Source: Candidatus Omnitrophota bacterium
GTDB lineage: Bacteria > Omnitrophota > Gorgyraeia > Zapsychrales > Fredricksoniimonadaceae
Direction of reading: 5' to 3'
NCBI GenBank assembly: GCA_016201795.1
Contig: JACQCF010000004.1
Coordinates: 10,117 to 74,116, forward strand
Length of the DNA stretch: 64,000 nucleotides
Part shown: positions 1 to 24,191 of the stretch, piece after piece
How the letters are laid out: each line of letters starts with the position of its first letter
Position numbering within the stretch: the stretch's first letter is position 1
Position numbers and translations under genes: made by a program
The notes under the pieces: model-generated
Told to the model about the DNA's origin: nothing
Databases searched by the model: none
What the model saw: only the letters and a program-made list of their open reading frames with translations

Positions 1-3000
1 TTTGGAGTGAATTTCTTTCAAAGCTTGGGGTGGAACCTGTCAGTGTGGCAGGGCATAGCTTGGGAGAATTGACGGCGTTTTATAGGGCCGGGGCTTTCCC
101 TAAAGAAACCCTTATGAAATTCGCCGAGTTACGCGGGGCATTGATGGCTGCCAAAGGTCGTTTGGCGGGCAGTATGGCCAGTTTATTCTGTTCTAAAGAA
201 AGGGCGGAAGAATTAGTCAGTAAAATATCCGGGAATATCATTATTGCCAATATCAATAGCCCAACCCAGGTGATTGTTTCCGGAGGAAGTAAGGAAATCG
301 ACAAAGTCATCGCATTGGCCAAAAAAGAAGATATTTCAACCTACCGATTGAATGTTTCCAATGCTTTTCATTCTTCTTTGATGGAACCTGCATCTGAAAA
401 GATACTTTCCAGTAAATTACTACACAACACATTTAAACCGTCTGATATTCAAGTCTATTCAGGCATCAGCGCAGCTCCTGTTGAAACAAAGGTCAATTTA
501 AGTGAGTATTTTTCCAAACAGGTCATATCACCGGTGAATTTTATGGGTTTAGTGGAAAATATGTCCAAAGAATGTGATGTAATTATTGAAGTAGGACCAG
601 GCCGGGTTTTGACCGATTTGGTTAAAGCCATCAATAAAGGAGAAGGCCCCTTATGTTTACCCGTTGAATCGACCGCACAGAATGACCGTGATTTAAATAT
701 TGTGCTGGCTGAATTGTTCGTACGTAATGTCCCTGTGAAATGGGAAGAACTGTATAAAAACAGGTTGATTAAGGTATTTGTCCCTGCTTCCCGAAAGAAA
801 TTCATCGAGAACCAGTGTGAACACCCTTTAAAGATAGGCAATCAAATTATAAAGAGTGAAAGTTTACGTTTTTCCCCTCCTTCCACAAAAACCACCCAAC
901 AACCAGAAGAAATCATTCCCGGAGGCTTACAGGCCCAGGAAACAATTAAGGGCAAGGACAATATTGCTGAATTATTGATTGAATTAACGCATAAAATCAC
1001 TGGTTTTGAAAAAGAGAGTATCTCTTTGGATTCAAGACTTTTGGATGATTTAAATCTGGATTCCATTAAAGCGGGAGAGCTTATCGGCCAGGCGGCCAGG
1101 GCTTTGGGTATCGGAGGCAAAATAGACCCATCGCAGATTTCCCACAATACTTTAGGCAAAATCAGGGACCAATTGCATGAGCTGGCTGAAGAACACGGGA
1201 AAGCATCAGATTCAGAGACAAAGGAAGATATTTTAAAGCGTTACCATGATAAATCCTGGGTCAGAAATTTTATCCCTAGTTTAAGACCCGAAGAAATCAC
1301 CACCCGTCATGTGAATCAATTAAACAGTTTAAAGAATATCGTTATTCTTTCAGAGAAGGATGAAGATTCTCTGGCAGAAACAATCAAAGAAGGCTTTAAG
1401 AATAACAAGGTTAAAATTCGAACAATCAATTATGAAGATTCGCATGAGAAAACAAAATTTACTCATGTAAATTGTTTGATAGTAACCCTTCCCAGGGATT
1501 CTCAGCCCAATGATCTCAATAAAGACACCCTAAAAGAAATCATCAAACGTCTCAACAAGGTTGTCGGCCTGGCCAATCAAATAAAGAAGGATGCTTTCAT
1601 TGTTTTTGTGCAGTTTGGCGGGGGCAATTTTGGAGAAAACAGTCATTTGAAGGATATTGCTTCATCATCGGCCAAGTCTTTGGCTTCAACCTTATATCTT
1701 GAAAGGCCGGATTTAAAGGTGAAGATTATTGATTTTGACAGCCAAATATCTGATAAAGAAATTTCATTGAAGATTATCGATGAACTTCAAACGTATGCAA
1801 AGTTTGACGCTGTTGGTTATGATTCAAATTTAAGAAGAAATGTTGTCTATTACGAGAATTCTCAGCCCGTGGACTATAAAAAACGTAATATTTTCTGGTC
1901 ATCTAAAGACGTTGTATTAGTCACAGGAGGGGCTAAGGGGATTACTGCCCAATGCGCTTTGGAATTTGCCCGTTCCACAAAGGCCTGCGTGATTTTGATG
2001 GGCCGTTCCCCAATTCCAAAAGATAAAAATGATGAAATTAATCAAACCTTAAATCAATTTGAAAAAGAACAACTCAAGGCCACTTACTATCAGTGTGATG
2101 TGACCGATGAAACAAGCGTTTTAAAAGCCATAGATGACATTGAACATAAATATGGCAAGATCACAGGGTTCATTCATGGCGCGGGTTTAAACAGCCTAAA
2201 GCGTTTAAAACAAGCCAGTGTCACGGAAGCATTCAATGAATCCTTGCCTAAAGTCATTGGGGCTGTCAATGTTTGCAAAGCTTTATCTAAAAGTCCACCC
2301 AAACTTATCGCCGGGATTACTTCTATTATTGGCTTAACCGGCATGGAGGGAAGCGGTTGGTATGGATTGTCCAATGAAATCCTCAATCTTTACCTGCGTC
2401 AATTTAAAACACAACATCCAAAAACTGAAGTTGTGACCATTGCCTATAGTGTTTGGGATGAAGTAGGTATGGGGGCAAAGCTTGGCAGCGTTGAACGTCT
2501 GGCTCAAAAGGGGATAGGGGCCATACCTGTCAAGGAAGGGGTGAAGCGTTTTAGAGAGCTTATTGAGAACGATCCGGCAACACAGCAAGTCATTGTGGCT
2601 GCCAGAATAGCTGGAATTGATACCTGGAAATTGCCAGTTGTAAAGACAAGCAATTTTAGGTTTATTGAGGATGTGAAATATTTTCTGCCTCAAGTAGAGT
2701 TGATTGTCCAGGCAAAACTTAATGTTAAAGACGATTCCTATTTACTGGACCATAACTGGAAGGGTTCGCTGTTGTTTCCTTTTGTGTTTGGGTTTGAGGC
2801 CATGGCGCAGGCAATGGCTTATGTCTTAGGCATTGATCAATTCGAACAAATTATAGCCAAGGACATTAATCTTGAGCGGCCGATTCCTGTGCCAGAGGAT
2901 ACTGGAATTACAATAGAAATTCACGCGCAGGTTTTACAGCAGGAGAGAAGGCAGGATAGCAGAGAAGTTAAGGTGGAGATTTATTCACAGGATACAGGTT

Positions 3001-5285
3001 ATAAAGAGCCGCATTTTTCAGCGATTTTTGAAATACTTCCCAAGCCTGTCATTCCCCAAAAGGTTGATCTCAGCCAAAGGGTTAAAAATGTCATTGATTT
3101 GGACATGCAGACGGATATTTACGGGCCAGTATTATTTCAAGGGAAGCTGTTTCAGTGTATCGAGCAAATCCATGAGCTTTATTACAACAAGGAAAAGAAT
3201 AAAGGGGAATGTGTTTTTACTTCAGGATATAACAGATCTACTGAAGTGTTTTTAAAGAACAATGAGAAATTCAACAGCCATTTTCTCATTGGCGAACCAT
3301 TTTTTATCGACTCTCTTTTTCAGTCGATGCAGTTAATCATTCCACAGGATATATCTTTACCCAGAGATATTGAGAAGATTGAATTAACACCAATGGAGAA
3401 TCATTCTCACTCTAAGTCTGCTCAATCCGCCATTAAAAGAATTGATAGTGAACATTACAGGGGAGATGCCGAAATTAGTCAGGGTAAGTTTTTATTAAGA
3501 ATAAGGAATTGTCGGCTTAAGGTGCTGAATACTATTTTGAGTAACCCTTCAGCTAATGATTTGGTTAATCCTGCTCAACGTGATCAAAAGATCATAGAAG
3601 ATAAGTTGGCCGAATTGTTTAATGATTTAGGATTTGTACCACCTAAAATTAAATGCCTATATGATGGACGACTTGAAGGATCCTTAAAAGAGTTAAGACA
3701 CAAAATTGAGCTTCCATTAATCAAAGCGGTTGTAGAAGAGGCAATGATTCTAGAAAGAAAGAGAATTAAAAATTTTAAAATCAAATGGCTTAAATCTGGA
3801 AAACCAGTGATTGAAGGAGATAATGCAAAAGGTTTTGGTGTGTCGCTTTCACACAACCATTCATTCCTATTGGTAATTTCTGGCTATGGTGATCAGGGAT
3901 GCGATATAGAAGAAGTACAGGATCGAAGTAAAAGTGATTGGATGGGAATTTTAGGAAGGGAGAAATTTGCATTTTTGGAGAAAATCAATTCTAATGAGGA
4001 AAACCTTAGCGAAGATTGTACCGTTCTTTGGTCTATTATGGAAGCTGGTAAGAAATTGACGGATAAAGTTAACTTAATCGAAATCAATAGGCGGAATAAT
4101 TATGTTATTTCAAGGATTAAAGATGTTTCTGATGATCTTTATATAATTGCTTTAACATTACAACTTACAAAAGGTAATAAAAAAGTATTTTCATTAGCTG
4201 TACGCCGGAAAGATAAATTAAATGTTTCTTCAACACATGATTTCTCCGATAACTCTGTATCTAAAAAGTTAGGGTACAATGACAGTGCACATACTATGCA
4301 CTTAGATTATAGCGGACCACAAGGGCAGTTAGTTTATACAAAAAGATTTCCCGTTACTTTTAAAAGTAATCAAAATTTAAGTAGGAGCGTGTACTTTACA
4401 AACTATGCTGTATGGATGGGGGAAATAAGAGAATACGGTCTTTATCCCATTATGCAAAAATTGGCAGAATTGACAGAAACAGGTGGGTGGGGAATAGCTA
4501 CAAATTACGTTAAAATAAAGATTCTCGGAGAGGTATGGGGTAGAGATACCGTAGAAGTAAGATTATGGATGGTAAAATCTTTAGGTATTAAAGACTCAAC
4601 GTTTGATTGGATGTTTGAATGGCGTAGGGTCTTACCAAATGGAGCATATGAAAGGGTTGCTACAAGTGAACTAAGGACAACATGGGTCAGAATAACTGGA
4701 CATGGGGAAGCAGAAATTGAAGGTATGCCAAAGTTTATTCAGAATTTTATGGATGGTATGAGACCACGAGATAATTCTCCAACTATTTTGGATAAAATTT
4801 CTGAACCTATTAAAAATATTTCAACAGGTCAATTAATTAAGAAAAATGATATTTTAAGCAGACAGAGACATTTGCTTCATGAAGAATCGTTTAAAACTAG
4901 CTTAGAAGAATCAAACTTAGTTGGAAATATTTATTTTGCAAACTACCCTAAATGGTTAGGTAAAACGAGAGATTTATATTTTCAGGGAATAGTTCCAGAG
5001 TACTTTAGGGGGATTGGAAAAGAAGGTGAATTTTTAACTCTTGATTGCAACATTGATCACTTACAAGAAGCCATGCCATTCGATGAGATTATAGTAAGAA
5101 TGTATCTTGAGGTGTTGTATGAAAAAGGATTTGATTTATTTTTTGAGTTTTTTAGAGTTAATCAAGAAGGGGAACAAATAAAATTAGCATTTGGAAGACA
5201 AAAAATAGTATGGATCAAAAGACAAGGCTTAACACCCGTATCTTCCAGACTGCCTAATGATATTTTGGGGTTAATTAAAACTTAG
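1..5285 (+). CDS. Iterative type I polyketide synthase, 5'-truncated at window edge: AT-ACP-KR-DH-PPTase + two hotdog (4HBT-like) thioesterase domains (enediyne-PKS-like domain order)
   Basis: Frame open from nt 3. GHSLGE acyltransferase motif at the N-terminal end. ACP motif LDDLNLDSIKAGEL. KR Rossmann motif VLVTGGAKGITAQ. PKS-DH motif LLDHNWKGSLLFPFVFGF with a distal DSLFQSMQL. PPTase motifs GCDIEEV and WSIMEAGKKL. Two C-terminal hotdog thioesterase repeats (VYFTNYAVWMGEIRE, IYFANYPKWLGKTRD). Confidence 0.8.
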   Translation, partial: WSEFLSKLGVEPVSVAGHSLGELTAFYRAGAFPKETLMKFAELRGALMAAKGRLAGSMASLFCSKERAEELVSKISGNIIIANINSPTQVIVSGGSKEIDKVIALAKKEDISTYRLNVSNAFHSSLMEPASEKILSSKLLHNTFKPSDIQVYSGISAAPVETKVNLSEYFSKQVISPVNFMGLVENMSKECDVIIEVGPGRVLTDLVKAINKGEGPLCLPVESTAQNDRDLNIVLAELFVRNVPVKWEELYKNRLIKVFVPASRKKFIENQCEHPLKIGNQIIKSESLRFSPPSTKTTQQPEEIIPGGLQAQETIKGKDNIAELLIELTHKITGFEKESISLDSRLLDDLNLDSIKAGELIGQAARALGIGGKIDPSQISHNTLGKIRDQLHELAEEHGKASDSETKEDILKRYHDKSWVRNFIPSLRPEEITTRHVNQLNSLKNIVILSEKDEDSLAETIKEGFKNNKVKIRTINYEDSHEKTKFTHVNCLIVTLPRDSQPNDLNKDTLKEIIKRLNKVVGLANQIKKDAFIVFVQFGGGNFGENSHLKDIASSSAKSLASTLYLERPDLKVKIIDFDSQISDKEISLKIIDELQTYAKFDAVGYDSNLRRNVVYYENSQPVDYKKRNIFWSSKDVVLVTGGAKGITAQCALEFARSTKACVILMGRSPIPKDKNDEINQTLNQFEKEQLKATYYQCDVTDETSVLKAIDDIEHKYGKITGFIHGAGLNSLKRLKQASVTEAFNESLPKVIGAVNVCKALSKSPPKLIAGITSIIGLTGMEGSGWYGLSNEILNLYLRQFKTQHPKTEVVTIAYSVWDEVGMGAKLGSVERLAQKGIGAIPVKEGVKRFRELIENDPATQQVIVAARIAGIDTWKLPVVKTSNFRFIEDVKYFLPQVELIVQAKLNVKDDSYLLDHNWKGSLLFPFVFGFEAMAQAMAYVLGIDQFEQIIAKDINLERPIPVPEDTGITIEIHAQVLQQERRQDSREVKVEIYSQDTGYKEPHFSAIFEILPKPVIPQKVDLSQRVKNVIDLDMQTDIYGPVLFQGKLFQCIEQIHELYYNKEKNKGECVFTSGYNRSTEVFLKNNEKFNSHFLIGEPFFIDSLFQSMQLIIPQDISLPRDIEKIELTPMENHSHSKSAQSAIKRIDSEHYRGDAEISQGKFLLRIRNCRLKVLNTILSNPSANDLVNPAQRDQKIIEDKLAELFNDLGFVPPKIKCLYDGRLEGSLKELRHKIELPLIKAVVEEAMILERKRIKNFKIKWLKSGKPVIEGDNAKGFGVSLSHNHSFLLVISGYGDQGCDIEEVQDRSKSDWMGILGREKFAFLEKINSNEENLSEDCTVLWSIMEAGKKLTDKVNLIEINRRNNYVISRIKDVSDDLYIIALTLQLTKGNKKVFSLAVRRKDKLNVSSTHDFSDNSVSKKLGYNDSAHTMHLDYSGPQGQLVYTKRFPVTFKSNQNLSRSVYFTNYAVWMGEIREYGLYPIMQKLAELTETGGWGIATNYVKIKILGEVWGRDTVEVRLWMVKSLGIKDSTFDWMFEWRRVLPNGAYERVATSELRTTWVRITGHGEAEIEGMPKFIQNFMDGMRPRDNSPTILDKISEPIKNISTGQLIKKNDILSRQRHLLHEESFKTSLEESNLVGNIYFANYPKWLGKTRDLYFQGIVPEYFRGIGKEGEFLTLDCNIDHLQEAMPFDEIIVRMYLEVLYEKGFDLFFEFFRVNQEGEQIKLAFGRQKIVWIKRQGLTPVSSRLPNDILGLIKT

Positions 5286-5294
5286 ATAAATATA

Positions 5295-8264
5295 ATGTCT
5301 CTTTTTTCTTTAACTAGTTTGCTGTTATCTATTTTATGTGGACTATTAGCAGTTTATATCTTTTTTAGTTCAAAAGAAACACTATACAAATTATGGAGTT
5401 TATTTAATGGAGTAGTTTGTCTCTGGGGTTTATTTCTATTCTTAGCAAGCCTCTCAAGAATAGAATCCGAGTCTTTAATTTTTTGGAAATTCTCACTTCT
5501 TGCACCAAGCCTGATGCCTTCCATATTGCTTCGATTTATAAATGCATTGACAGATAAAGATAATAAAAATTTTAAGAAATTGTGTGATGTTTATGCCGCT
5601 ATTTCTGTCATTCTAATTTTAGAAACCAATCTCTTTATAAAGAACGGATCTTTCTACTTTGATACTTTTTATTATATTAAATCGACTAAAGCGATGTCTA
5701 TTTGGCTTATATTTTTTGTTTTGTCTATTTGTAAAATTCTATGGAATTTATTTGAATTTACTAGAAATGAAAAAGGCTTAAAGAGTACTCAAGCTACGTA
5801 TATATTTTGGGGTATGTCGGTTGGATTTCTGGGAGGACTTTCTGTTGCTTTGCCAAGTTATGGTTTCAAAATTTTTCCGATTGGGCATATTCTTGTTTCT
5901 GTTTATGCAGCAACAGTCACCTTTGCTATAAAAAGAGAATTTATAGATATGAAATTATCACTTATAAAATTATTAATACCTTTTCTTATAGTGATTTCAG
6001 CCGTTGTTGGCTATTGTTTAACAAATTTTCATCTAAATTTATTTGCTTTGGCTGGTCTGCTTTTAGGATCTGCATGCTTTACTTTAGCTTATGTAATTCT
6101 TGCTTATGCCAATCAAAGGATGCATCACATATGGGCAATATTTAATGTTTGTATTGGTATTTGGGGTGCTGGAACCTTTTTTGTTGGAGTTTCAAATAAG
6201 CCAACCATAGCTTTAATTGCGTGGAAAATTGCGTACATAGGAGTTCTATTGTTACCTGTGCTTTTTTACCACATGATATACATTTTTTGTGACTTAAAAA
6301 ATAAGAAATTTTTAACCTTTGCGTATGCTCAGGTTATTTTTGTCCTTTTAGTTAATATTTTTACAAATCAATTTATAGGAAGGTTAGAGTATGTTTTTAA
6401 CTCTTTTTATTACCATCGTGTAACGAGTGTTTATTTATTTTTCTTTGTTATATGGGTGACAGTAGCAATTAATACCTTTTTTAGGTTGTATAGGTTCATA
6501 AAGACCTCAGAAGGACTAAAAAGAACGCAGGCTCTTTACTTATTTTGGGGAATGTTGTTAGGTTTTGCTGGAGGTACTACCGTTGTGGCTCCAGCTTTCG
6601 GTATCCCTATTTATCCATACGGTCATTTCTTTATATGTATTTATGCAGCAATATGTACTTATGCAATTTTTAGATATCAAGTGTTGGATATCAGAGTTGC
6701 TATAACACGCTTAGGGGTTTTTGTTCTTGTATATTCTTTAGTTTTAGGGGTTCCATTTGGTTTAATTATATGGGGAAAGTTATGGTTATTTAAACTGATG
6801 GGAGAAAATTGGTTCTGGGCTCCAATGTCAACCTTATTGATATTGGCGACTGCTGGGCCATTTATGTATATCTATTTTCAGAGCAGGGCAGAAGAACAGA
6901 TTTTAAAAGAAGAAAGAAGAATCCAGAGCTTGATACAGAAAACTTCCATTGGGATGGTTGCAATCAGGGATTTAAATAAGCTCTTAAAAGTAATAATTGA
7001 TGTCTTAGGAAAGAATTTACAGCTTGAACATATTTCTGTTTATTTGTTCGACCCAAATGAAAATATATATAACCAGAAAGCTTCGGATAAAATTGAGGAG
7101 GAAGGCTTTGTTTTAGAACATGATGATCTTCTGGTCCAAGAATTAAAAAAGAGAAAATCCCCTCTTTATTATGAGGAAATAAACCATCTGCTTCATAATC
7201 AAAAAGACAGTAACGGTGAGCTGAAAGCGCTTGTCGATCGCATGCAGAAATTATCGGCAAGCGTCATTGTCCCGGCAAGCAAAGAAGATATTTTGTTGGC
7301 TTTTATTGTATTGGGAAAAAGAGGCAAAAAAGAAGTTTACTCACCGGAACTGCTGGATGTTCTGGGGGTGGTTGGCAATGAAGCGGCGCTGGCCATAGAA
7401 AACGCCATCTTTTATGAGGAATCGGGTAAGGACTGGTCCGAGAGGGCGCATGACGCCCGATTAAAAATGATGGGAGCCATGGGGTCCGGCATTGCCCACC
7501 AGATTAACAACAAATTTCATGCTATTGGCTTTCAATTAAATTATTTGAAGGAATTATCAGAAGTGTCAGATTTGACGAAAATGACACCGGATGATCTTAG
7601 AAAATCACAGCAGGAACTCAAGGATGAAATCGGAAAAATCCTCACAGAAATCGACCGATCCGTGGAAATAGTCCAGGCCATTAAAAACTACGCCAAAAGG
7701 ACGGGGGCCGAGCCCCAGGTTACGTCATTCAAGGAAGTGGTGACAGGCGCCAAACACCTCGCGAAAATGATCCGCAAAGACAATGATGTGGAATATGAAC
7801 TTATTGAGGATTATCCCGAAAACGTGCTTCTATGGGTCAATTTTTCCATGCTTCAGGACGTTTTTGTCAATGCCTTTGATAATAGCCGCGACGCCTTAAT
7901 CTTGAAGAAATACCGCCTTGGAAAAGACGCGCAGAAGCTCGAGGAATACAAGCCCAAGATAACCGTATCCGGGAGGGCCAACACAACCATGTTTGATTTT
8001 GTCATAGAAGACAACGGCATGGGCATTGAAAAACATCATTTAGAAGAAGGCCAGGGAGTCAACGTCATGTATTTTACGACCAAAGGGGCTGTCAAGGGGA
8101 CCGGCATGGGAATCGCCATGATGCGCCAGTTTGCCAAACACAATAGGGGAGGCTTGAAAATAGAATCCGAGTATGGTCAGTGGACAAGAATAACCATTTC
8201 CTTACCCCTGGCGACCCCGGAACAAATAAAAGGCGGCAGCAATGAACCCAAAAACGGCCGTTGA
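5295..8264 (+). CDS. Sensor histidine kinase with ~450-aa duplicated polytopic membrane sensor, GAF-like domain, HisKA H-box and HATPase_c
   Basis: About 14 predicted TM helices in two homologous modules (LKSTQATYIFWGMSVGFLGG... / LKRTQALYLFWGMLLGFAGG...). H-box GSGIAHQINNKFHAI. G1/G2 boxes EDNGMGIE ... GTGMGIAMM at the C-terminus. Confidence 0.8.
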   Translation: MSLFSLTSLLLSILCGLLAVYIFFSSKETLYKLWSLFNGVVCLWGLFLFLASLSRIESESLIFWKFSLLAPSLMPSILLRFINALTDKDNKNFKKLCDVYAAISVILILETNLFIKNGSFYFDTFYYIKSTKAMSIWLIFFVLSICKILWNLFEFTRNEKGLKSTQATYIFWGMSVGFLGGLSVALPSYGFKIFPIGHILVSVYAATVTFAIKREFIDMKLSLIKLLIPFLIVISAVVGYCLTNFHLNLFALAGLLLGSACFTLAYVILAYANQRMHHIWAIFNVCIGIWGAGTFFVGVSNKPTIALIAWKIAYIGVLLLPVLFYHMIYIFCDLKNKKFLTFAYAQVIFVLLVNIFTNQFIGRLEYVFNSFYYHRVTSVYLFFFVIWVTVAINTFFRLYRFIKTSEGLKRTQALYLFWGMLLGFAGGTTVVAPAFGIPIYPYGHFFICIYAAICTYAIFRYQVLDIRVAITRLGVFVLVYSLVLGVPFGLIIWGKLWLFKLMGENWFWAPMSTLLILATAGPFMYIYFQSRAEEQILKEERRIQSLIQKTSIGMVAIRDLNKLLKVIIDVLGKNLQLEHISVYLFDPNENIYNQKASDKIEEEGFVLEHDDLLVQELKKRKSPLYYEEINHLLHNQKDSNGELKALVDRMQKLSASVIVPASKEDILLAFIVLGKRGKKEVYSPELLDVLGVVGNEAALAIENAIFYEESGKDWSERAHDARLKMMGAMGSGIAHQINNKFHAIGFQLNYLKELSEVSDLTKMTPDDLRKSQQELKDEIGKILTEIDRSVEIVQAIKNYAKRTGAEPQVTSFKEVVTGAKHLAKMIRKDNDVEYELIEDYPENVLLWVNFSMLQDVFVNAFDNSRDALILKKYRLGKDAQKLEEYKPKITVSGRANTTMFDFVIEDNGMGIEKHHLEEGQGVNVMYFTTKGAVKGTGMGIAMMRQFAKHNRGGLKIESEYGQWTRITISLPLATPEQIKGGSNEPKNGR

Positions 8265-8307
8265 AGCAAGCGCTGGGGTGAATTTTCAAGAAAGGACATA
8301 AGATCAA

Positions 8308-8685
8308 ATGAAGAATATCAAGATTGCCATCGTTGAGGATGAGGAGGGCGCGCGCAAGTCCATTGTCAGGATACTCAACCTTAAAGGATATAACCATATT
8401 CTGGAAGCCTCCCGGGGCAAGGAAGCCATAGCCATGATAGAGAAGGAAAAGCCTGACTTGGTGTTTCTGGATATCAAACTGGCTGATGAGGTAAGCGGTA
8501 TGGAGGTATTGGAAAGAAGCAGAACGGTTTCACCGGCTACAAGGGTGATTATGATGTCGGCCTATCAGGAGGAGCATGCTCAACAATCCAAAGAATTAGG
8601 GGCTTACGGGTTTTTTAAAAAACCTATGACGAGCATTGAACCCTTCATTAAGACTATTCAAGAAATAGCCGAGAAGCTGTCTTGA
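8308..8685 (+). CDS. Response regulator, receiver domain only (CheY-like)
   Basis: IAIVEDEE ... DLVFLDIKLAD ... MMSAYQ receiver signature. No output domain. Confidence 0.85.
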   Translation: MKNIKIAIVEDEEGARKSIVRILNLKGYNHILEASRGKEAIAMIEKEKPDLVFLDIKLADEVSGMEVLERSRTVSPATRVIMMSAYQEEHAQQSKELGAYGFFKKPMTSIEPFIKTIQEIAEKLS

Positions 8686-8686
8686 T

Positions 8687-9172
8687 ATGACCATACGTAA
8701 TAAAATCCATGATTTGGTCAATTATTATAACAAAATCAGTATGGGTTCTATCGTAACAAGAGAATTACTCTCTAGCGTCGATTACAAAAATACATCGACG
8801 GGAGAATTAGAATCGGCATTTAAAGAAGCCGTTACTAATTTGAAAATATTTGAAGATGCCATTATGGAAGCCAATAAAATCCTTCAAGAAATACAAACAT
8901 TTATCAAAAATCAAACACGGTGTAAAACAAATTTCCCGCCGGAAGTCAAAGATTGGCATGACAAACTATATCACGCTGCCTTCCTCAGCAGGAAAGCATT
9001 GCTTGAAAGTAGTTTAACCGAACTTTCTGAAGCTCAAGTTAAGGAAACCGTCTCTCAAGCCATAGAAATCCAGAACAAAATCGGAGAATACGTCATTAAG
9101 GCGGATGAGGTTATCGAAAAAGCCAAAAAAGTTATTTATAGGGAACTTGCGGGAGAAACGGAAATTCCTTAA
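8687..9172 (+). CDS. Hypothetical all-helical protein embedded among receiver genes
   Basis: 161-aa ORF, start overlaps the upstream stop (TGATATG). No recognisable motif. Confidence 0.5.
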   Translation: MTIRNKIHDLVNYYNKISMGSIVTRELLSSVDYKNTSTGELESAFKEAVTNLKIFEDAIMEANKILQEIQTFIKNQTRCKTNFPPEVKDWHDKLYHAAFLSRKALLESSLTELSEAQVKETVSQAIEIQNKIGEYVIKADEVIEKAKKVIYRELAGETEIP

Positions 9173-9201
9173 ATGATAGAAATTTATAAAAAAGGATAGA
9201 T

Positions 9202-9597
9202 ATGCCGAAACTCTTGGTTATTGATGATGATAAGGAAACTTGCGAGTACATCAAAGAATTCTTTGAGCATAGAAAATACACTGTTTTTGCCGCCGATTCA
9301 GGACCAAAGGGTCTTGCCCTTATCAAACAGCAAGAACCCGACCTGGTTTTATTGGATGTAAATATGGAAGGAATCAATGGCCTTGAAACCTTGAAGCAGA
9401 TTAAAGACAAATATCCAGAAATGGCTGTCATGATGGTGACCGTGGCTTCCGATGATGACACCCGAAAGACAGCCCAAACGCTTGGCGCCGATGACTTTAT
9501 TCGAAAGCCGATCCACGGCGACTATTTGGAAGGAACCGTGCTTCTTAAAGTGGCGGCCTTGATCCGTGAAAGGAAAAGGAAGAATGCCCATACCTAA
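9202..9597 (+). CDS. Response regulator, receiver domain only
   Basis: LLVIDDDKE ... DLVLLDVNMEG ... MMVTV ... K receiver signature. Confidence 0.85.
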   Translation: MPKLLVIDDDKETCEYIKEFFEHRKYTVFAADSGPKGLALIKQQEPDLVLLDVNMEGINGLETLKQIKDKYPEMAVMMVTVASDDDTRKTAQTLGADDFIRKPIHGDYLEGTVLLKVAALIRERKRKNAHT

Positions 9598-9976
9598 TAT
9601 TCTTATCGTTGATGATGAGCAGGACATCCGCAAGCGCATTTCTGACCATTTAAGGAAGCGCATGGAGTGTCATATTATAGAAGCCGCCAATGGCTATGAA
9701 GCGCTGGAAGAATTCCAAAAAGACCAAATTGATATCATATTATTGGATATGAAAATGCCCGGAATAAGCGGTACCGAGGTCATCAAGAAAGCCAGGGAGA
9801 AATCCAATATCCCTATCATTGTCATTAGCGGTTTGGAGGGGGCGGCTATTTCCCGGCATTTGGAAGAATGCGGCGTGGATGAGTATATTACCAAGCCTTT
9901 TTCTTTAAAAGTGGTGCAGGAGAAAGTTGTTGAAAGGTTAAAAAAGTGCGGAAAATATTTTCCCAAACAGCCTTAA
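9584..9976 (+). CDS. Response regulator, receiver domain only
   Basis: ILIVDDEQD ... IILLDMKMPG ... IVISG receiver signature. ATG at 9584 is preceded by a purine-rich RBS (AGGAAAAGGAAG); the ORF track used an upstream GTG at 9566. Confidence 0.8.
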   Translation: MPIPNILIVDDEQDIRKRISDHLRKRMECHIIEAANGYEALEEFQKDQIDIILLDMKMPGISGTEVIKKAREKSNIPIIVISGLEGAAISRHLEECGVDEYITKPFSLKVVQEKVVERLKKCGKYFPKQP

Positions 9977-10530
9977 AAGATATACTTAGGGTTTTGAACA
10001 AGGAGACATTCGGCTTTTCGGCCGGTGGGATTTTCAAAGTAATGCCAGTGTGTACTGTGAAAAGAAAAGCTTTCCCCTTTCCTTACGATATGCCTTTCCT
10101 GGCCATTTTCGGTTGTGACGATACAGGCTAGCTCGCCGCTTAACCCGTAAATCCACTTCAAAAAATCGTTCTTTTCGGCCGGGTCCTGTTCCGGGGCTGT
10201 TTTAGCGCCCGCCAAGAGGGTCAATTTGGCTGGCAAAAAGGGCAGGTTATTGACTTCAAATTCCAGCCAAGCTTTTTTATTATAATTGAAACGGGTGACT
10301 TTTTCTTCCTGATCAGTCCCTTCCCTAATATCTTTGGGAGTTTGCCCTAGAGCCGCCGCGATTTGATGCAGGGTGGTTTCCCTTAGCTGGGTTTGACCCG
10401 AGAGGGTACGAAGAAGGGTTAGATAGGTTATGGCATTTTCTTCAAAGAGATTCACAATCTCCTTATGAAGCTGGGTGATTGTCCAGCCTTTTTCTTTAAG
10501 CATTAAGTTGATTTTTTTGTATATTTTCAT
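9973..10530 (-). CDS. XRE-family HTH transcriptional regulator with C-terminal cupin domain
   Basis: Only convincing minus-strand gene. N-terminal HTH (LMLKEKGWTITQLHKEI...) and a C-terminal cupin-like beta-barrel region with His residues. Divergent from an AT-rich region carrying palindromes. Confidence 0.8.
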   Translation of the reverse strand: MKIYKKINLMLKEKGWTITQLHKEIVNLFEENAITYLTLLRTLSGQTQLRETTLHQIAAALGQTPKDIREGTDQEEKVTRFNYNKKAWLEFEVNNLPFLPAKLTLLAGAKTAPEQDPAEKNDFLKWIYGLSGELACIVTTENGQERHIVRKGESFSFHSTHWHYFENPTGRKAECLLVQNPKYIF

Positions 10531-10573
10531 AGTGTTTGCATTCTACCTTAAGACAGAAGTCCTGTCAATGAAA

Positions 10574-10612
10574 TTATATCATTTTTTAAATTAGTTTGTA
10601 ACTTATGATATA
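10574..10612. promoter_or_regulatory. Putative operator copy 1: 9-bp inverted repeat TTATATCAT-N21-ATGATATAA
   Basis: Seen directly. Spacer shares CATTTTTTAA..TTTG motif with copy 2. Confidence 0.5.
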
Positions 10613-10671
10613 AAATTTTTATTTTTTCTACATAATAAGTCATAAATACTTACTTATGAATAACTTATAAA

Positions 10672-10710
10672 ATATATCATTTTTTAACATTAATTTGACA
10701 AATGATATAT
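10672..10710. promoter_or_regulatory. Putative operator copy 2: perfect 9-bp inverted repeat ATATATCAT-N21-ATGATATAT, overlapping a TTGACA -35-like hexamer
   Basis: Seen directly, about 100 bp from copy 1, between the divergent XRE/cupin regulator and the + strand small ORFs. Confidence 0.5.
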
Positions 10711-10749
10711 TATCATGTTACACTTGCATTAGATAGGAGGAAACAGGTT

Positions 10750-10917
10750 ATGTTCTTAGGAATGTTCCATAAAATGATAATAGCTAAAACCATCAGCCCG
10801 TGTTTTTTATTAACAACCCTTTTTAGCAAAGACCACAGGCAAGAAAAGGAACGTATGAATTACGATGAAGTGCCTGGGGATAATTTTCCTTATGTACTGA
10901 TGCTTCATTGTGAGTGA
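10750..10917 (+). CDS. Small hypothetical protein (55 aa from the RBS-supported ATG)
   Basis: AGGAGG at 10735-10740, 9 nt before the ATG. No homology recognised. Confidence 0.25.
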   Translation: MFLGMFHKMIIAKTISPCFLLTTLFSKDHRQEKERMNYDEVPGDNFPYVLMLHCE

Positions 10918-10926
10918 GAGAAATGT

Positions 10927-11022
10927 ATGGCTAAAGTTATCTGTGTAAAATGCAAAGATACTGGTGGTTATACAGCCTCCCCTGATTATACACGCTGCCG
11001 ATGTGGAGGAAGGCGGTCATAG
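10927..11022 (+). CDS. 31-aa putative zinc-ribbon peptide (MAKVICVKCKDTGGYTASPDYTRCRCGGRRS)
   Basis: CxxC ... CxC spacing typical of small zinc ribbons. Below the ORF-track length cutoff. Weak RBS. Confidence 0.3.
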   Translation: MAKVICVKCKDTGGYTASPDYTRCRCGGRRS

Positions 11023-12015: not shown

Positions 12016-12696
12016 ATGACGCGCTCTTGCCCAGAACCCCAGCTCATTGGCCAACTCCTACTTAGAGAAGGCCTCATTCGCCTTGAAGCCCTGGAGAAAG
12101 CCTTGCTGGAGCAGGAAAAATCCGGCCTGCCTTTGGGGGAGGTCCTCATCAAGTCAGGTGACATTACGCAAGAGGCCTTTTATGAAGTTTTATCCCGGCA
12201 GACGGGCCTTGCATACGTGCGATTAAAAGATTTGACTGTGACTCCTGCCATCCTCGCTGAAATTCCGGCCAAATTCGCCTGCCATTATGCTTTCATGCCT
12301 GTGGGCATGGAAGATTCTACCGTGACGGTTGCCGTGCCCCGTCTTTTGGACATACAAACACAGGATGATATCAGGCTTTTGTTAAAAAAGAACATCAAAA
12401 TGGTCCTGGCGTCGCCTAAGGAAATTGCCGAGGCCATAAAGACATATTATGGCGTGGGCGCACAAACCATGGAAAAGATATCACCGCAGCTTGCGCAGGA
12501 GAAATTCACTAGCGTCCAGTCCCAGGAAACCCAGGACCTTGTGGCCTCCAGTGAAGACGCCTCCATCATTCAATTTGTCAATCAAATTCTGCTGCAAGCC
12601 TACCACGACAGGGCCACCGACATCCATATTGAGCCTTATGAGAATGAGCTTGCCGTCAGGTACAGAATAGACCAAGGTCAAAATAGGCCAGGATGA
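12016..12696 (+). CDS. gspE: T2SS/T4P assembly ATPase GspE/PilB, N-terminal fragment (N1E domain up to the start of the N2 domain)
   Basis: GspII_E_N-like N-terminus. Ends ...DIHIEPYENELAVRYRIDQGQNRPG* where a canonical GspE continues. Confidence 0.75.
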   Translation: MTRSCPEPQLIGQLLLREGLIRLEALEKALLEQEKSGLPLGEVLIKSGDITQEAFYEVLSRQTGLAYVRLKDLTVTPAILAEIPAKFACHYAFMPVGMEDSTVTVAVPRLLDIQTQDDIRLLLKKNIKMVLASPKEIAEAIKTYYGVGAQTMEKISPQLAQEKFTSVQSQETQDLVASSEDASIIQFVNQILLQAYHDRATDIHIEPYENELAVRYRIDQGQNRPG

Positions 12697-12697
12697 G

Positions 12698-13609
12698 GTG
12701 GACTTGCGCGTCTCCATTTTACCGACTCCTTTTGGCGAAAGTGTTGTCATCAGGGTCCTTTCCAAGCATGTCTCTTTGAATCTTGAAAATTTAGGCCTGT
12801 TACCGAGGGATTTGGAGATTTTGGAAAGAATGATTAAAAAGCCGCATGGCATTATTTTTGTGACAGGCCCTACGGGAAGCGGGAAGACCACAACCCTTTA
12901 TGCCGTGTTAAGCCAGATTAAAGGAGCGGACAAGAAAATTATCACGATAGAGGACCCCATCGAATATCAAATCAAAGGGGTCACCCAGATTCAGGTGCAG
13001 CCCAAAATTGACCTGACTTTTGCCAGCGCCTTGCGCTCCATGCTGCGCCATGACCCGGATGTCATGATGGTGGGGGAAGTCAGGGACTATGAAACCGCCG
13101 AGATTACCATTCGGGTAGCACTGACCGGCCATCTGGTGTTCTCAACACTGCATACCAATAACGCGGCTGGCGGCGTCACGCGGCTCATTGATATGGGGGT
13201 AGAGCCGTTTCTGGTGTCATCGGCGGTGGAATGTTTTATTGCCCAGCGGCTGGTGAGGGTCTTGTGCGAGCGTTGCAAAAAAGAGACAAAACTTACCGAA
13301 GAGGTCTTGCGAGAGCTTGGGGTCACGAACTTGGATTTGTCCAAAGTCAGGATATACGAACCAGCGGGATGCGAGTCCTGCCGGCACACAGGGTACAAGG
13401 GCAGGACGGCTATTTACGAGATGTTGGTTGTGAATGAGGCCATCAAAGAGTTGATCTTAAAAAGAGCTTCCTCGGATCAGATTAAAACCAAAGCATTGGC
13501 CCTTGGCATGAGAACGCTGCGCCAGGACGGATGGCAGAAGATTGTCAAAGGCCTCACGACCGCCGCTGAGGTCATCAGGGTCACCCAGCAGGAAGATCTG
13601 GTGGAATAA
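12698..13609 (+). CDS. gspE: T2SS/T4P assembly ATPase GspE/PilB, C-terminal ATPase fragment (Walker A GPTGSGKTTT, Asp box, His box, tetracysteine motif)
   Basis: The +1 frame immediately upstream reads TKVKIGQDEVDLRVSILPTPFGE, matching the conserved region just before Walker A. About 33 codons are missing relative to canonical GspE. Confidence 0.8.
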   Translation: MDLRVSILPTPFGESVVIRVLSKHVSLNLENLGLLPRDLEILERMIKKPHGIIFVTGPTGSGKTTTLYAVLSQIKGADKKIITIEDPIEYQIKGVTQIQVQPKIDLTFASALRSMLRHDPDVMMVGEVRDYETAEITIRVALTGHLVFSTLHTNNAAGGVTRLIDMGVEPFLVSSAVECFIAQRLVRVLCERCKKETKLTEEVLRELGVTNLDLSKVRIYEPAGCESCRHTGYKGRTAIYEMLVVNEAIKELILKRASSDQIKTKALALGMRTLRQDGWQKIVKGLTTAAEVIRVTQQEDLVE

Positions 13610-20412: not shown

Positions 20413-22362
20413 ATGAAAACAAAACTCATAAGTATTTTGACGGCGGGGACGTTGTTTGTTGTGTCTATGTTGGGGCCTCTTCGGGTCTCGGGCCAGGAAG
20501 AGCCTCATCCCGCTTCCAATCTCAAGCAAGCGCCTGCGCAAATCCAGTCCGATAGAATCTCGCTGGATTTAAAAGGCATGGATGTGGTGGAAGTCATCAA
20601 GACCCTGGCTTCCCAGGGTAACTTGAATGTCGTCATAGGCGATGATGTCAAAGGCCGCGTGACGATTTTTTTAAAAAGCGTTAAGCTTATGGATGCCTTT
20701 GAGATTATCCTTGTGGCCAGCGACTTGGCCTATGACAGGCGGGGGGACATTATCTATGTCATGTCCCAGAGGGAATACGAGGACACCTATGGAGAGCGCT
20801 TTGCCGACAAAACAACGGCCAAAATCATTCAACTGAAATTTGCCAAAGCCGCTGAAGTGGCCAAGGCGTTGAACCAGATGAAAAGCAAGATCGGCAAAAT
20901 CATCGTGGATGAAGGTTCCAATACCATTGTCATGATGGACAGTCCTGTTTTAGTGACCCGCATGCAGGAGACGGCCGGCAAACTGGATTCACCCACCATA
21001 ACGAAAGTCTTCAGTCTCACCTACGCGAAAGCGGAAGATTTAAAGACCAAAATTTCCGAGAGCCTCACCCCCGGCATTGGCAGTATGCAGATTGATGAAA
21101 GGACCAATCAGGTTGTGGTCACCGATCTGGAGGGAAAGATGGCCAAAATCCAGCAGATGATAACAGCTTTTGATGAAAAATTGCAGCAAGTTTTTATCGA
21201 AGCCAAGATTGTGCAGATTACCCTCAATGACCAGTACAAAATGGGTGTGGACTGGAACAGTTTCCTTAATAAATTGCATAAAAACAGCATCAACAGTGCC
21301 TTTGGGCTGGCAGCCAGGGATACTCTTAATCCCGGCGCACAACTGGCCATCGGTTCCGGGGACCCCAACTCTGATTACAACATTGTTGTGCAGGCGTTAA
21401 AATCCATTGGCGATGCCAATCTGCTTTCCAGTCCCAGAATCACCGTCCTGAATAACCAGGAGGCAAAAATCTTGGTGGGTAAAACCCAGCCCTACGCGAT
21501 TAATACCGTGACCCAGGGAACAGCCACGACCACGACGGCCACGAACTTGCAGTTTATCGATATCGGGGTCAAACTCTATGTCACACCCGTGGTCAATCGG
21601 GATGGTTTTATTACCATGAAAATCAAGCCCGAGGTCAGCTCGGCCACCGACTTTTACACGTATGGCTCGCCTCCAACCACAGTTCCCATCGTGGAAACCA
21701 CCCAGGCGGAAACCAGTGTGACGGTCAAAGACGGCACCACTCTGATTATCGCGGGTCTTATCAAGGACGACAGAAACAGCCAGGTGGACAAGGTCCCGTT
21801 TTTGGGTGACCTTCCCTTGATTGGAAACGCCTTTCGAAAGACCGGTAAATCCATCAACAAGCAGGAACTGGTGGTTTTTTTGACTCCTCATATCGTGACC
21901 GGAGACAATGATTATGTGGTCGCGCCACCTAGTCCGCCCACTGGCGAAAAGAAATTCACCATGCCAGAGGATTTTGTTTTTGAACGCAGGGACAGGGTGA
22001 AAATGGACCCGGGCGTATTTAAAGAGAACCCTGTTCCTCAAGCTAGGGGAAAAGCAACGTCTTTTATAACGGTGTTGCCCGCAAGCGATCAGGAGTATTA
22101 TTACGTGGTTAAAGAAAAAATAGCCCAACAGATCATAGCACCCAAAGACAAAACGCATATCCCTTTGAAAGGGAAGGTGAAGGTGCAATTTTTTCTTTCT
22201 TCCAAAGGGGAACTCTTATACGCGCCCGAGATTGCGCAGTCAAGTAATTCTTCTTTGGATGAGGCGGTCATCGCCGCGGTAGTTAAAGCTGCGCCGTATC
22301 CAGCGTCTCCCCAAAAGGGGGTAAAACAGAAACGTTTTGTGGTGGATTTTTCCTTTGAGTAA
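20413..22362 (+). CDS. gspD: Secretin GspD/PilQ with a C-terminal TonB-C-like extension
   Basis: Signal peptide and N0/N1-type domains. Secretin core (LLSSPRITVLNNQEAKILVG ... VPFLGDLPLIGNAFRK ... VVFLTPHIV). A ~150-aa tail ending KGKVKVQFFLSSKGELLYAPEIAQSSNSSLDEAVIAAVVKAAPYPASPQKGVKQKRFVVDFSF. Confidence 0.9.
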   Translation: MKTKLISILTAGTLFVVSMLGPLRVSGQEEPHPASNLKQAPAQIQSDRISLDLKGMDVVEVIKTLASQGNLNVVIGDDVKGRVTIFLKSVKLMDAFEIILVASDLAYDRRGDIIYVMSQREYEDTYGERFADKTTAKIIQLKFAKAAEVAKALNQMKSKIGKIIVDEGSNTIVMMDSPVLVTRMQETAGKLDSPTITKVFSLTYAKAEDLKTKISESLTPGIGSMQIDERTNQVVVTDLEGKMAKIQQMITAFDEKLQQVFIEAKIVQITLNDQYKMGVDWNSFLNKLHKNSINSAFGLAARDTLNPGAQLAIGSGDPNSDYNIVVQALKSIGDANLLSSPRITVLNNQEAKILVGKTQPYAINTVTQGTATTTTATNLQFIDIGVKLYVTPVVNRDGFITMKIKPEVSSATDFYTYGSPPTTVPIVETTQAETSVTVKDGTTLIIAGLIKDDRNSQVDKVPFLGDLPLIGNAFRKTGKSINKQELVVFLTPHIVTGDNDYVVAPPSPPTGEKKFTMPEDFVFERRDRVKMDPGVFKENPVPQARGKATSFITVLPASDQEYYYVVKEKIAQQIIAPKDKTHIPLKGKVKVQFFLSSKGELLYAPEIAQSSNSSLDEAVIAAVVKAAPYPASPQKGVKQKRFVVDFSFE

Positions 22363-23653: not shown

Positions 23654-24191
23654 AAATTTTTTATTCAGGGCAGTATCGTTAAGCGTTTTCTTCCTGTTAA
23701 ATTTAACTTATAGCAAAGCTGACGATAACACACAATCTAATCAAAATTATATTGCCAGTGGCAGTTCCATAAAAGTAACACAGGGAGGAGCTCTCTTTAA
23801 TACACAGATAGAATATTTTAAAATCACTGGCAACACTATTAATATCGATAGGAAGAATGATAATAAAGGTCTTGAGTCCAAATCAGCAAACTCTACTTCT
23901 GGGATATCTGTGGTTCATACCTCTGCAGGAACTAATCAATCTTTTGATTTAATAAATAAGACAAATACTGCCCGTTGGCAAAAGAAGACTTTTTCCACCG
24001 CACAGGCATCGAAGCCGATAGTTAAGATTACTCAATCAAAAGAATTACAGAATTTAGAACAGCATCGCAAAGCCAGAAAAGAAGCCTTAAAGAAAATGCT
24101 GGAATTGCGCCCGTCCCGTCGGGAAAATACTCTTATCAATAACCTAAACACCAACACCAACCAGGACGATCAAGACAATGCGCAGCCATAG
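23643..24191 (+). CDS. Hypothetical secreted Asn/Thr/Ser-rich protein
   Basis: Signal peptide MKAKNFLFRAVSLSVFFLLNLTYSKA. AT-rich. Confidence 0.5.
   Translation: MKAKNFLFRAVSLSVFFLLNLTYSKADDNTQSNQNYIASGSSIKVTQGGALFNTQIEYFKITGNTINIDRKNDNKGLESKSANSTSGISVVHTSAGTNQSFDLINKTNTARWQKKTFSTAQASKPIVKITQSKELQNLEQHRKARKEALKKMLELRPSRRENTLINNLNTNTNQDDQDNAQP

Follow-up and report, generated by a model that had tools for sequence, protein, structure and literature searches.

The closest described relatives of the gene studied here are the iterative polyketide synthases (PKSs) of enediyne biosynthesis (PKSEs) and the thioesterases (TEs) which accompany them, as in the pairs SgcE/SgcE10, CalE8/CalE7 and DynE8/DynE7. 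All known enediyne clusters keep the genes E10, E, E5, E4 and E3 adjacent, and E and E10 alone yield a heptaene shunt product (PMC4480864). Enediyne-like PKS genes are also common outside the actinobacteria, in sediments and anaerobes; ketosynthase (KS) sequences of this kind are known from Deltaproteobacteria as well, their products are unknown, and they are treated as possible enediyne sources and currently taken as hints of new enediyne drugs (PMC10308959). We analysed a stretch of 64,000 nucleotides from a Candidatus Omnitrophota bacterium (contig JACQCF010000004.1; the whole stretch is called the window below), whose left edge cuts into a gene of this type. Positions 3-5285 make up the last two-thirds, at the 3' end, of a gene for an iterative PKS on one polypeptide, probably self-sufficient, which has the architecture of an enediyne PKSE and, in addition, a fused double-hotdog thioesterase. 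We also find it rather likely that this enzyme is a self-priming, self-releasing synthase of a polyene or unsaturated acyl chain, coupled to a two-component system, and that the whole forms a module of lipid signalling or homeostasis and not an antibiotic pathway.

In the window the gene is an open reading frame (ORF) of 1,760 residues in frame 3, open at the left edge and ending with a stop codon at 5283-5285. Its translation is identical to residues 689-2448 of P0176, a protein of 2,448 amino acids (aa) from a Candidatus Omnitrophica metagenome-assembled genome (MAG), annotated by NCBI as an SDR family NAD(P)-dependent oxidoreductase. The KS and the initial ~75 residues of the acyltransferase (AT) of P0176 lie upstream of the window. 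The gene and its domains are listed here; residues of the window protein are counted from window nucleotide 3, and the KS cysteine alone is given in the numbering of full-length P0176.

3-5285, plus strand: iterative type I PKS, C-terminal 1,760 codons and stop codon (identity with P0176)
3-770, plus strand: AT, its N-terminus cut by the window edge (Pfam Acyl_transf_1, 2.8e-24, residues 4-209)
972-1163, plus strand: acyl carrier protein, ACP (Pfam PP-binding, 1.5e-5)
1914-2459, plus strand: catalytic subdomain of the ketoreductase, KR (Pfam KR, 2.8e-23)
2697-3527, plus strand: dehydratase, DH, a double hotdog of the PKS type (Pfam PKS_DH_N, 1.3e-7; PS-DH, 5.4e-7)
3573-4205, plus strand: Sfp-type phosphopantetheinyl transferase, PPTase (motifs, family profile, NCBIfam AcpT, predicted fold; Pfam ACPS negative)
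4299-4760, plus strand: hotdog domain 1, HD1 (paralogy to HD2, two-domain model)
4833-5282, plus strand: hotdog domain 2, HD2, of the enediyne-thioesterase family (Pfam 4HBT_2, PDB matches, model)

Pfam places the AT of the window ORF at residues 4-209, PP-binding at 324-387, KR at 638-819, PKS_DH_N and PS-DH at 899-1175 and 4HBT_2 at 1638-1743; in the full protein it places the KS at residues 21-433 of P0176. With the PPTase, recognised by motifs, profile and fold, the full order in P0176 is KS-AT-ACP-KR-DH-PPTase-hotdog-hotdog. No enoylreductase (ER) domain was found by Pfam, either in the window ORF or in the full-length protein. The catalytic motifs are intact in every domain of P0176: the KS has its Cys229, the AT has GHSLG with the active-site Ser19 and AFHS at 121-124, the ACP has its pantetheine attachment residue Ser354 within LDDLNLDSI, the KR has the nucleotide-binding TGGAKGIT and Tyr787, and the DH has His917 of HxxxGxxxxP and Asp1103 of DxxxQ. 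A preliminary description, made from the letters of the window, had proposed the order AT-ACP-KR-DH-PPTase with a KS off the window, and both points hold.

The same description had claimed an integrated PPTase, for which a Pfam ACPS match between the DH and the hotdogs was to be the sign. There is no such match (PF01648) at residues ~1191-1420, either with the whole ORF or with the isolated segment, the latter searched even at E <= 10; the PPTase itself stands on four independent lines. First, the protein has SLSH at 1281, GCDIE at 1299-1303 and WxxxEAxxK with E1347 and K1351, and in an alignment of 12 homologues the invariant or near-invariant columns are GKP, SLSH, G-C-D-[IV]-E and W[ST]xxE[AS]xxK, which are Sfp-type motifs. 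The set binding magnesium and coenzyme A (D1301, E1303, E1347, K1351) is complete, and D1301, E1347 and K1351 are invariant throughout the family. Second, the profile of the 12 homologues matches Sfp (1qr0, 4mrt) with E = 6e-4, the matches to AcpS being weaker. Third, NCBIfam AcpT matches the segment with 1.1e-5; one homologue, P0279, has a precomputed PF01648 match. Fourth, the AlphaFold model of residues 1191-1466 (mean pLDDT 79.6, and >80 up to model residue ~210) was compared to the PDB with Foldseek, and its best 24 matches are all Sfp-type PPTases (PptAb, PptT, Sfp, MuPPT, PcpS), with E from 1e-7 to 1e-5 over ~220 aligned columns and a probability of 1.00; the subsequent matches are unrelated, with E > 3e-3. 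Hence, we concluded that an Sfp-type PPTase sits between the DH and the hotdogs despite the Pfam miss.

The two C-terminal hotdogs had been described as 4HBT-like thioesterase domains, which the comparisons confirm. HD2 (the C-terminal ~125 residues) matches the solved enediyne thioesterases SgcE10 (4i4j, 4.5e-16), CalE7 (2w3x, 4.4e-15) and DynE7 (1.8e-14), and the family profile matches CalE7 with 7.7e-26. HD1 has no Pfam match; it is 25% identical to HD2 (E = 1e-8). When the model of the two hotdogs (pLDDT 86, pTM 0.86) is compared over its whole length with Foldseek, the best matches are double-hotdog enzymes, the acyl-ACP thioesterases FatA/FatB and the acyl-CoA thioesterases ACOT7 and ACOT12 (E ~1e-13), and not dehydratases, so that the hotdogs count as thioesterases and not as a further DH. 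In the plant and bacterial FatA/FatB, ACOT7 and ACOT12, as in the window protein, a single chain carries two hotdog halves forming one pseudo-dimer (~300 aligned columns, TM 0.55-0.75), whereas sequence identity with the window di-hotdog is just 5-14%. Since each half derives by sequence from the 4HBT-like enediyne-thioesterase lineage, the window di-hotdog looks like an independent duplication and fusion relative to FatA/FatB and ACOT.

N1638, Y1648 and R1656 of HD2 align with Asn19, Tyr29 and Arg37 of CalE7, which we take to be its catalytic positions (a literature search on the catalytic residues of CalE7 found no paper stating them); the equivalents in HD1 are N1458, Y1468 and R1476. In the family as a whole, the Asn is invariant in HD2 only, while an Arg-Glu pair is invariant in HD1 only. 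This asymmetry is the pattern expected of a pseudo-dimer with one main active site, and we infer from the alignment that a former homodimer has turned into such a pseudo-dimer. As modelled, the two hotdogs are one pseudo-dimeric double-hotdog thioesterase of the acyl-ACP type, not two independent enzymes.

The PKSE-like architecture which the preliminary description had proposed is supported by more than the common order KS-AT-ACP-KR-DH-PPTase and the common absence of an ER. HD2 is a clear homologue of SgcE10, CalE7 and DynE7, and the best PDB match of the ACP among all carrier proteins is the ACP of CalE8 (2l9f, 1.3e-6), with LDDLNLDSI in the window protein and LDDLHMSSI in CalE8. PKSEs have an atypical ACP motif, H(L/M)(S/T/N)S(I/L) (PMC3107222); the window motif, NLDSI, departs from it twice, with N instead of H and D instead of S/T/N, and so keeps it only in part. 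Several homologues are labelled 'enediyne polyketide synthase' by JGI. When the AT-to-DH part or a full-length homologue was searched against the PDB sequences, kinship with PKSEs could not be told from kinship with other PKSs or fatty-acid synthases (FASs). There are also differences from the enediyne systems: SgcE10, CalE7 and DynE7 are discrete ~150-aa homotetrameric proteins whereas the window TE is fused and duplicated in tandem, the host is an uncultured member of the Omnitrophota and not an actinomycete, no E3, E4 and E5 genes were found in the window, and the conserved partner is a sensor kinase.

A second kinship leads to the polyunsaturated fatty acid (PUFA) synthases. The PfaA model TIGR02813 is the second-best NCBIfam match of the whole ORF (4.8e-66), and PfaA and the other 'secondary lipid' synthases share with the window enzyme the KS-AT-ACP(n)-KR-DH core and an oxygen-independent iterative chemistry; in Desulfosarcina, the relatives resemble PUFA synthases also in having 2-3 ACPs in tandem. 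These likenesses would suit a membrane-lipid synthase under feedback from a DesK-like sensor: fatty acids of an unsaturated or polyene kind would go into membrane lipids or glycolipids, and the neighbouring kinase would sense the state of the membrane and tune synthesis, with no diffusible signal. Such a system, which would be an oxygen-independent route of unsaturation in an anaerobe, is in our opinion unlikely, yet serious enough to be followed through the evidence below. An identity with PfaA itself was rejected, for the score of 222.6 bits is far under the cut-off of 1010.1, the window protein has a single ACP, no ER, a built-in PPTase and a thioesterase, and there are no PfaB, PfaC, PfaD or ER partner genes. 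Most of this speaks against the membrane-lipid explanation too, as does a dedicated hydrolytic thioesterase, which gives a free product.

The preliminary description had held that this is not a canonical enediyne cluster. No E3, E4, E5 or other biosynthetic or tailoring genes were found in the 64 kb, a span which excludes the upstream flank and was searched without E3/E4/E5-specific profiles, and none of the tailoring enzymes of the related loci occurs anywhere in it; the 59 kb beyond the synthase contain no candidate gene. Across 21 related loci the only recurrent neighbours are signalling proteins, FadL and FAS-type genes. As none of the other cassette genes was found there, presumably no enediyne is made, and the locus is not an enediyne cluster. 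It might still be a cryptic but genuine enediyne pathway with E3, E4, E5 and the tailoring genes elsewhere in the genome. The PKSE-type domain order, the PKSE-like ACP, the E10-family thioesterase, the JGI labels and the enediyne-like KS clades of Deltaproteobacteria and sediments (PMC10308959) would all agree with this. We nevertheless hold it to be extremely improbable: the adjacency of the five cassette genes in all known clusters (PMC4480864) already refutes it so far as adjacency is required, neither the neighbours in the 21 loci nor the rest of the window offer candidates, and the family is large and carried by small-genome anaerobes.

The size of this family was estimated by an exhaustive HMMER search with the PPTase and di-hotdog segment as query, counting 50% identity clusters as representatives. 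With a threshold of E <= 1e-3 there are 767 representatives, and with E <= 1e-30 there are 284; many are 2,300-2,700 aa long and match at their C-terminal end. The GTDB species genomes, when scanned, gave 227 loci, the best (81% identity) in an Omnitrophota MAG; many carriers are Desulfobacterales, including the cultured Desulfosarcina variabilis, D. alkanivorans and D. widdelii, and others are Planctomycetales, Oligoflexia, Nitrospiraceae, Thermoflavimicrobium daqui and a Waterburya cyanobacterium. The TE fusion is real in the window but not unique: a large family has the PKS-PPTase-di-hotdog fusion as its normal form. The family is abundant in databases under uninformative names, and the literature has taken some notice of it through KS tags. 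In our literature searches neither the fused thioesterase nor the kinase-linked context turned out to be described, and nothing relevant came up that links PilZ, seven-transmembrane (7TM) kinases or Omnitrophota with such PKSs.

Within the family the number of ACPs varies from 1 to 3, a PilZ domain may stand at the N-terminus of the PKS (P0044, P0290, L078), an amine-oxidase/CrtI-like domain may follow the hotdogs (L074, L078), and the di-hotdog may be a gene of its own (~340 aa) beside a discrete KS and a FabA-like DH (L002, L003, L044). Some members are peculiar enough to be mentioned separately. P0003 (950 aa, from a metagenome) is a stand-alone PPTase with four hotdogs, that is, two di-hotdog units in tandem. 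The Desulfobulbaceae-type loci L078 (2822-12496) and L074 (2828-12478) encode proteins of ~3,220 aa, followed by a 7TM kinase gene, with the order [PilZ]-KS-AT-ACP-ACP-KR-DH-PPTase-hotdog-hotdog-amine oxidase/CrtI-like flavoenzyme, PilZ being detected in L078 only. In the Omnitrophica MAG locus L008 the PKS (636-11017) comes directly after plsX, fabH and fabD and occupies the usual fabG-acpP-fabF place of a fatty-acid synthesis operon.

Downstream of the synthase, the window continues with the genes of a two-component system, the kinase gene starting 9 bp past the PKS stop codon.

5295-8264, plus strand: sensor histidine kinase, 989 aa (duplicated HisKA_7TM, GAF-like region, H-box, HATPase)
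8308-8685, plus strand: single-domain CheY-like response regulator (Pfam Response_reg, 1.8e-23)
8687-9172, plus strand: 161-aa ORF, no family match
9202-9976, plus strand: two receiver domains in overlapping ORFs, 9202-9597 (frame 1) and 9566-9976 (frame 2)
9973-10530, minus strand: regulator with an XRE-type helix-turn-helix (HTH) and a cupin domain, convergent with the operon (promoter-like site 10568-10540)

The two HisKA_7TM copies occupy kinase residues ~1-240 and 241-480, with ~14 hydrophobic segments and a GC content of ~0.30 across 5295-6735; most orthologues (~725 aa) have one copy, and two are also found in L027. There is no terminator-like site on the plus strand before the end of the last receiver gene at 9976, and the PKS gene is presumably co-operonic with the 14-transmembrane HisKA_7TM-GAF kinase and the CheY-like receivers. 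The 161-aa ORF has no Pfam or NCBIfam match, its sole detectable homologue is in L029, and the small ORFs at the same position in L009, L017 and L027 look unrelated, with no tblastn match to it. L009 and L017 have a single 256-aa gene with two receivers at the position of the overlapping ORFs, and the window alignment changes frame between ~9570 and 9578; either a +1 frameshift lies in 9202-9976, as an assembly error or the mark of a pseudogene, or the gene has truly become two, which overlap.

ORF and domain maps were made for 83 related loci, and a neighbour-joining tree was built on the di-hotdog region. The clade of the window comprises ~19 loci from Omnitrophota, Planctomycetota, a Peregrinibacteria-labelled MAG and Troglogloeales. 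A HisKA_7TM kinase is directly downstream in every one of the 18 which have downstream sequence, at a distance of -11 to +23 bp (in L011 synthase and kinase are separated by a short spurious ORF). The adjacency holds for the type I synthase and also for discrete genes for KS, FabA-like DH and di-hotdog (L002, L003, L044), the di-hotdog gene of L044 being flanked by two 7TM kinases, and a second small group (L074, L078, L082, with L048 nearby) has the same pairing. After the kinase, the block is usually laid out either as a receiver and a GAF-HD protein, then additional opposite-strand 7TM kinases, a receiver and the HTH-cupin regulator, or, as in the window, as a receiver, a small ORF, a protein with two receivers and the convergent HTH-cupin gene; the HTH-cupin regulator is a recurrent final member. 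The sensor kinase is therefore the most conserved partner of the thioesterase, and not, as the preliminary description had read it, the point where the cluster ends. Coupling of such synthases to HisKA_7TM-GAF kinases appears not to have been described before.

One could object that the adjacency means nothing, the PKS-TE being a lipid or polyene synthase that works alone, with the two-component genes as unrelated neighbours: the wider fused family mostly has other neighbours, and most kinase homologues are not beside a di-hotdog. Given 18 informative loci out of 18 in several phyla, gaps which overlap or remain < 25 bp, and an adjacency which survives the change from type I to discrete enzymes, as well as the di-hotdog of L044 between its two kinases, we regard this as very improbable.

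The upstream context had to be taken from relatives, L084 and L085 being the closest with upstream sequence, as the window does not cover its own upstream flank. A FadL/Toluene_X outer-membrane channel is directly upstream of the PKS in L084 (63% identity) and L085 (56%), and also in L001, L006, L007 and L082. L085 (14659-24662) has, besides, five HisKA_7TM kinases around its PKS: a single one lies downstream, and four paralogues stand in tandem on the opposite strand, which looks like a receptor expansion.

We then looked at the relationship from the other side, scanning metagenome contigs with the 7TM-GAF part of the kinases. This gave 80 loci, 44 of them with at least 1 kb of upstream sequence. 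In nearly all of these 44 the kinase is immediately preceded by a gene on the same strand, the distance being mostly -13 to +30 bp. This gene is distributed as follows.

9 of 44 loci: CrtI/amine-oxidase-like flavoenzyme
7 of 44 loci: KS
6 of 44 loci: methyltransferase
5 of 44 loci: conserved unknown protein (cluster C7)
2 of 44 loci: NAD_binding_4 acyl reductase
2 of 44 loci: type I PKS
13 of 44 loci: other or unclustered

At least one gene of fatty-acid or polyketide type is present in the fetched upstream stretch at 30 of the 44 loci, and a KS at 21; among the types are KS, ACP, FabA-like DH, KR, CrtI-like oxidase, acyl reductase and methyltransferase. The idea that the kinase family is specific to the di-hotdog thioesterase was rejected, since only 2 of the 44 loci, L086 and L102, carry a PKS or di-hotdog upstream. 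What the family does show is a habit of being embedded in lipid or polyene gene sets of varied enzymology, and this strengthens the case that the window kinase is functionally tied to the PKS product. The FadL family found beside the PKSs recurs in these loci, and it is their CrtI-like enzyme that L074 and L078 carry as a fusion with the PKS.

In the typical layout, KS-KS-ACP-FabA-KR-(reductase, nitroreductase)-CrtI-like comes first; the kinase, a receiver and a GAF-HD protein are next, and behind them stand a glycosyltransferase resembling monogalactosyldiacylglycerol (MGDG) synthase, a lipid A-type acyltransferase and a GT2 glycosyltransferase. Gene sets of this sort among L086-L165 (for example L096, L103 and L091), which also have a PCMT-like methyltransferase at their end, are apparently undescribed. 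With their KS/KS, ACP, FabA-like DH, KR, methyltransferase, lipid A-type acyltransferase and GT2 they resemble the type II clusters of aryl polyenes, whose products belong to the class predicted here, polyenes. The window differs from aryl polyene clusters in encoding a type I megasynthase without anchoring or tailoring genes, and we know of no aryl polyene cluster that embeds a 7TM kinase.

This resemblance raises the question of whether the product is a protective pigment, a membrane antioxidant or photoprotectant like the aryl polyenes and xanthomonadins, whose expression under oxidative or other stress the two-component system would merely regulate. A KS-AT-ACP-KR-DH synthase without ER does predict a conjugated polyene, the kinase-homologue loci add CrtI-like desaturases to their aryl-polyene-like set, and the FabA-like DH of L002 has a weak ApeP-like match. 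Against this, the window yielded no genes for anchoring or export (acyltransferase, LolA/MMPL-type), most carriers are anaerobes which live in the dark, the kinase is transcribed together with the synthase and behind it instead of controlling it from outside, and the receivers have no DNA-binding domains. We consider the pigment improbable. Another idea, a polyene chromophore covalently bound in the 7TM domain as in rhodopsin, was dropped because there is no invariant lysine among the conserved 7TM positions.

The same layout bears on the membrane-lipid synthase with a feedback sensor, introduced above. The MGDG-synthase-like glycosyltransferase, the lipid A-type acyltransferase and GT2, which in the type II loci come immediately behind the kinase genes, argue for it, as do the place of the L008 PKS inside a plsX-fabH-fabD operon and the PilZ-PKS fusions, which suggest allosteric control of synthesis. 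The 64 kb of the window, on the other hand, yielded neither an acyltransferase nor a glycosyltransferase, and the recurrent FadL channel suits a free hydrophobic molecule crossing the outer membrane.

Returning to the self-releasing synthase coupled to a two-component system, we propose that it would work in the following way. The PPTase domain would convert its own ACP (Ser354) to the holo form. KS, AT, KR and DH would then iterate on malonyl units to give a conjugated polyenoyl-ACP, a chain that would be fully unsaturated because there is no ER. The pseudo-dimeric thioesterase would finally cleave the polyenoyl-ACP, possibly with decarboxylation as for SgcE/SgcE10 and CalE8/CalE7, and release a free polyene acid, a hydrocarbon or a methyl ketone. 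By analogy with those pairs, the product is expected to be a conjugated polyene, either as the free acid or as the decarboxylated hydrocarbon or methyl ketone. As the co-operonic pairing is invariant in the thioesterase clade of the window, the released lipid is most likely a ligand of the kinase or an output which it controls, and product and 7TM-GAF kinase system would form one functional unit.

Several observations weigh against this interpretation. Only parts of P0176 show specific PKSE kinship, and the AT is no closer to PKSEs than to others (in the PDB search, 77.9 bits for the AT of DynE8 and 82 bits for DisD/FabD). Chain length, degree of unsaturation and release chemistry, as proposed here, are extrapolations from actinobacterial PKSE/TE pairs. 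Most members of the fused PKS-TE family, for example the Desulfosarcina loci, have no kinase, and the association is one-directional, as the two loci of 44 mentioned above indicate. The glycosyltransferases and the lipid A-type acyltransferase after the kinase in type II loci imply a membrane-anchored lipid there, not a diffusible signal. The response regulators are without a DNA-binding output domain. Lastly, the kinase coupling is a genomic association, which would fit a kinase sensing the product, controlling its synthesis, or both.

Of the two roles, that of a ligand seems to us favoured, because synthase and receptor are co-transcribed, hydrolytic release frees the molecule, FadL is recurrent and receptor paralogues have been expanded. 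The data fit nearly as well a kinase which senses the state of the membrane and regulates a membrane lipid or pigment, on account of the glycosyl- and acyltransferases of the type II loci, the plsX-fabH-fabD context of L008 and the PilZ domain on some synthases. MshEN is a domain binding cyclic di-GMP (c-di-GMP), and one may speculate that this nucleotide is the output currency, at which the HD-type proteins, PilZ and an MshEN-type ATPase encoded further downstream in the window hint.

Well-known autoinducer pairs offer a parallel. In CqsA/CqsS, LqsA/LqsS and RpfF/RpfC/RpfG, the gene for an enzyme releasing a hydrophobic molecule derived from a fatty-acyl chain adjoins that of a polytopic membrane histidine kinase. 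The window synthase gene likewise adjoins that of a predicted polytopic kinase, and many relatives have, as in the Rpf system, an HD(-GYP-like) protein and receivers. To our knowledge there is no sequence relationship between CqsA, LqsA or RpfF and the window synthase, and the kinase differs from CqsS, LqsS and RpfC in having HisKA_7TM as its sensor domain. A wider proposal, which we put forward only tentatively and would not ourselves bet on, is that the lipids which the cells themselves make, of polyketide or fatty-acyl type, are perceived by HisKA_7TM-GAF kinases as receptors. In that case the window would be one example of widespread, undescribed lipid-signalling modules in uncultivated phyla of anaerobes (Omnitrophota, Planctomycetota, Desulfobacterota and others), with passage of a hydrophobic ligand across the outer membrane through FadL, with output through CheY-like, HD and c-di-GMP (PilZ, MshEN) proteins, and with interchangeable synthases, which would be either type I PKSE-like enzymes with a fused TE or discrete KS/ACP/DH/KR sets with CrtI-like oxidases or acyl reductases.

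The remainder of the window is organised as follows.

5.3-12 kb: kinase, receiver domains, small unknown ORF and HTH-cupin regulator, as above
12-22 kb: system resembling type II secretion (T2SS) or type IV pili, with MshEN-type ATPase, GspF, GspK, PilN and secretin
24.2-35.7 kb: RHS-repeat proteins
40.8-50.4 kb: type IV secretion genes
beyond 50.4 kb: housekeeping genes

The GspE/PilB-type ATPase is split over two frames, 12016-12696 (MshEN and the start of T2SSE) and 12698-13609 (the remaining T2SSE), a second possible frameshift. The secretin, at 20413-22362, has a TonB_C-like tail. Just 3' of this set are the RHS-repeat proteins, 24178-25650 (490 aa) and 26863-35700 (2,945 aa, with Ig-like domains). 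A VirB4/TraC-like ATPase and a TraG/VirD4-like coupling protein, at 40812-43577 and 48647-50404, belong to type IV secretion or conjugation and may mark an integrated mobile element. A tRNA-Ala(CGC) at 51895-51971 is followed by the genes for AlaRS, HisD and TrpE.

Finally we must note what the locus means for the enediyne-like PKSs from which we started. Where such genes of sediments and anaerobes are taken as hints of new enediyne drugs, this one argues otherwise for at least one large branch, whose members would be stand-alone synthases of polyenes or unsaturated lipids tied to signal transduction, because the PKS-PPTase-TE is self-contained, the enediyne cassette is absent and the kinase partner is invariant. 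As the genes of the uncharacterised HisKA_7TM sensor domain sit behind lipid-biosynthetic genes, they provide a first concrete functional lead for that domain. The fused enzyme is encoded by a single gene, so that direct expression is possible and the hypothesis can be tested without cultivating Omnitrophota. From the conserved wiring to HisKA_7TM-GAF kinases comes a testable role for the enediyne-like PKSs of anaerobes as well as for the sensor domain itself.

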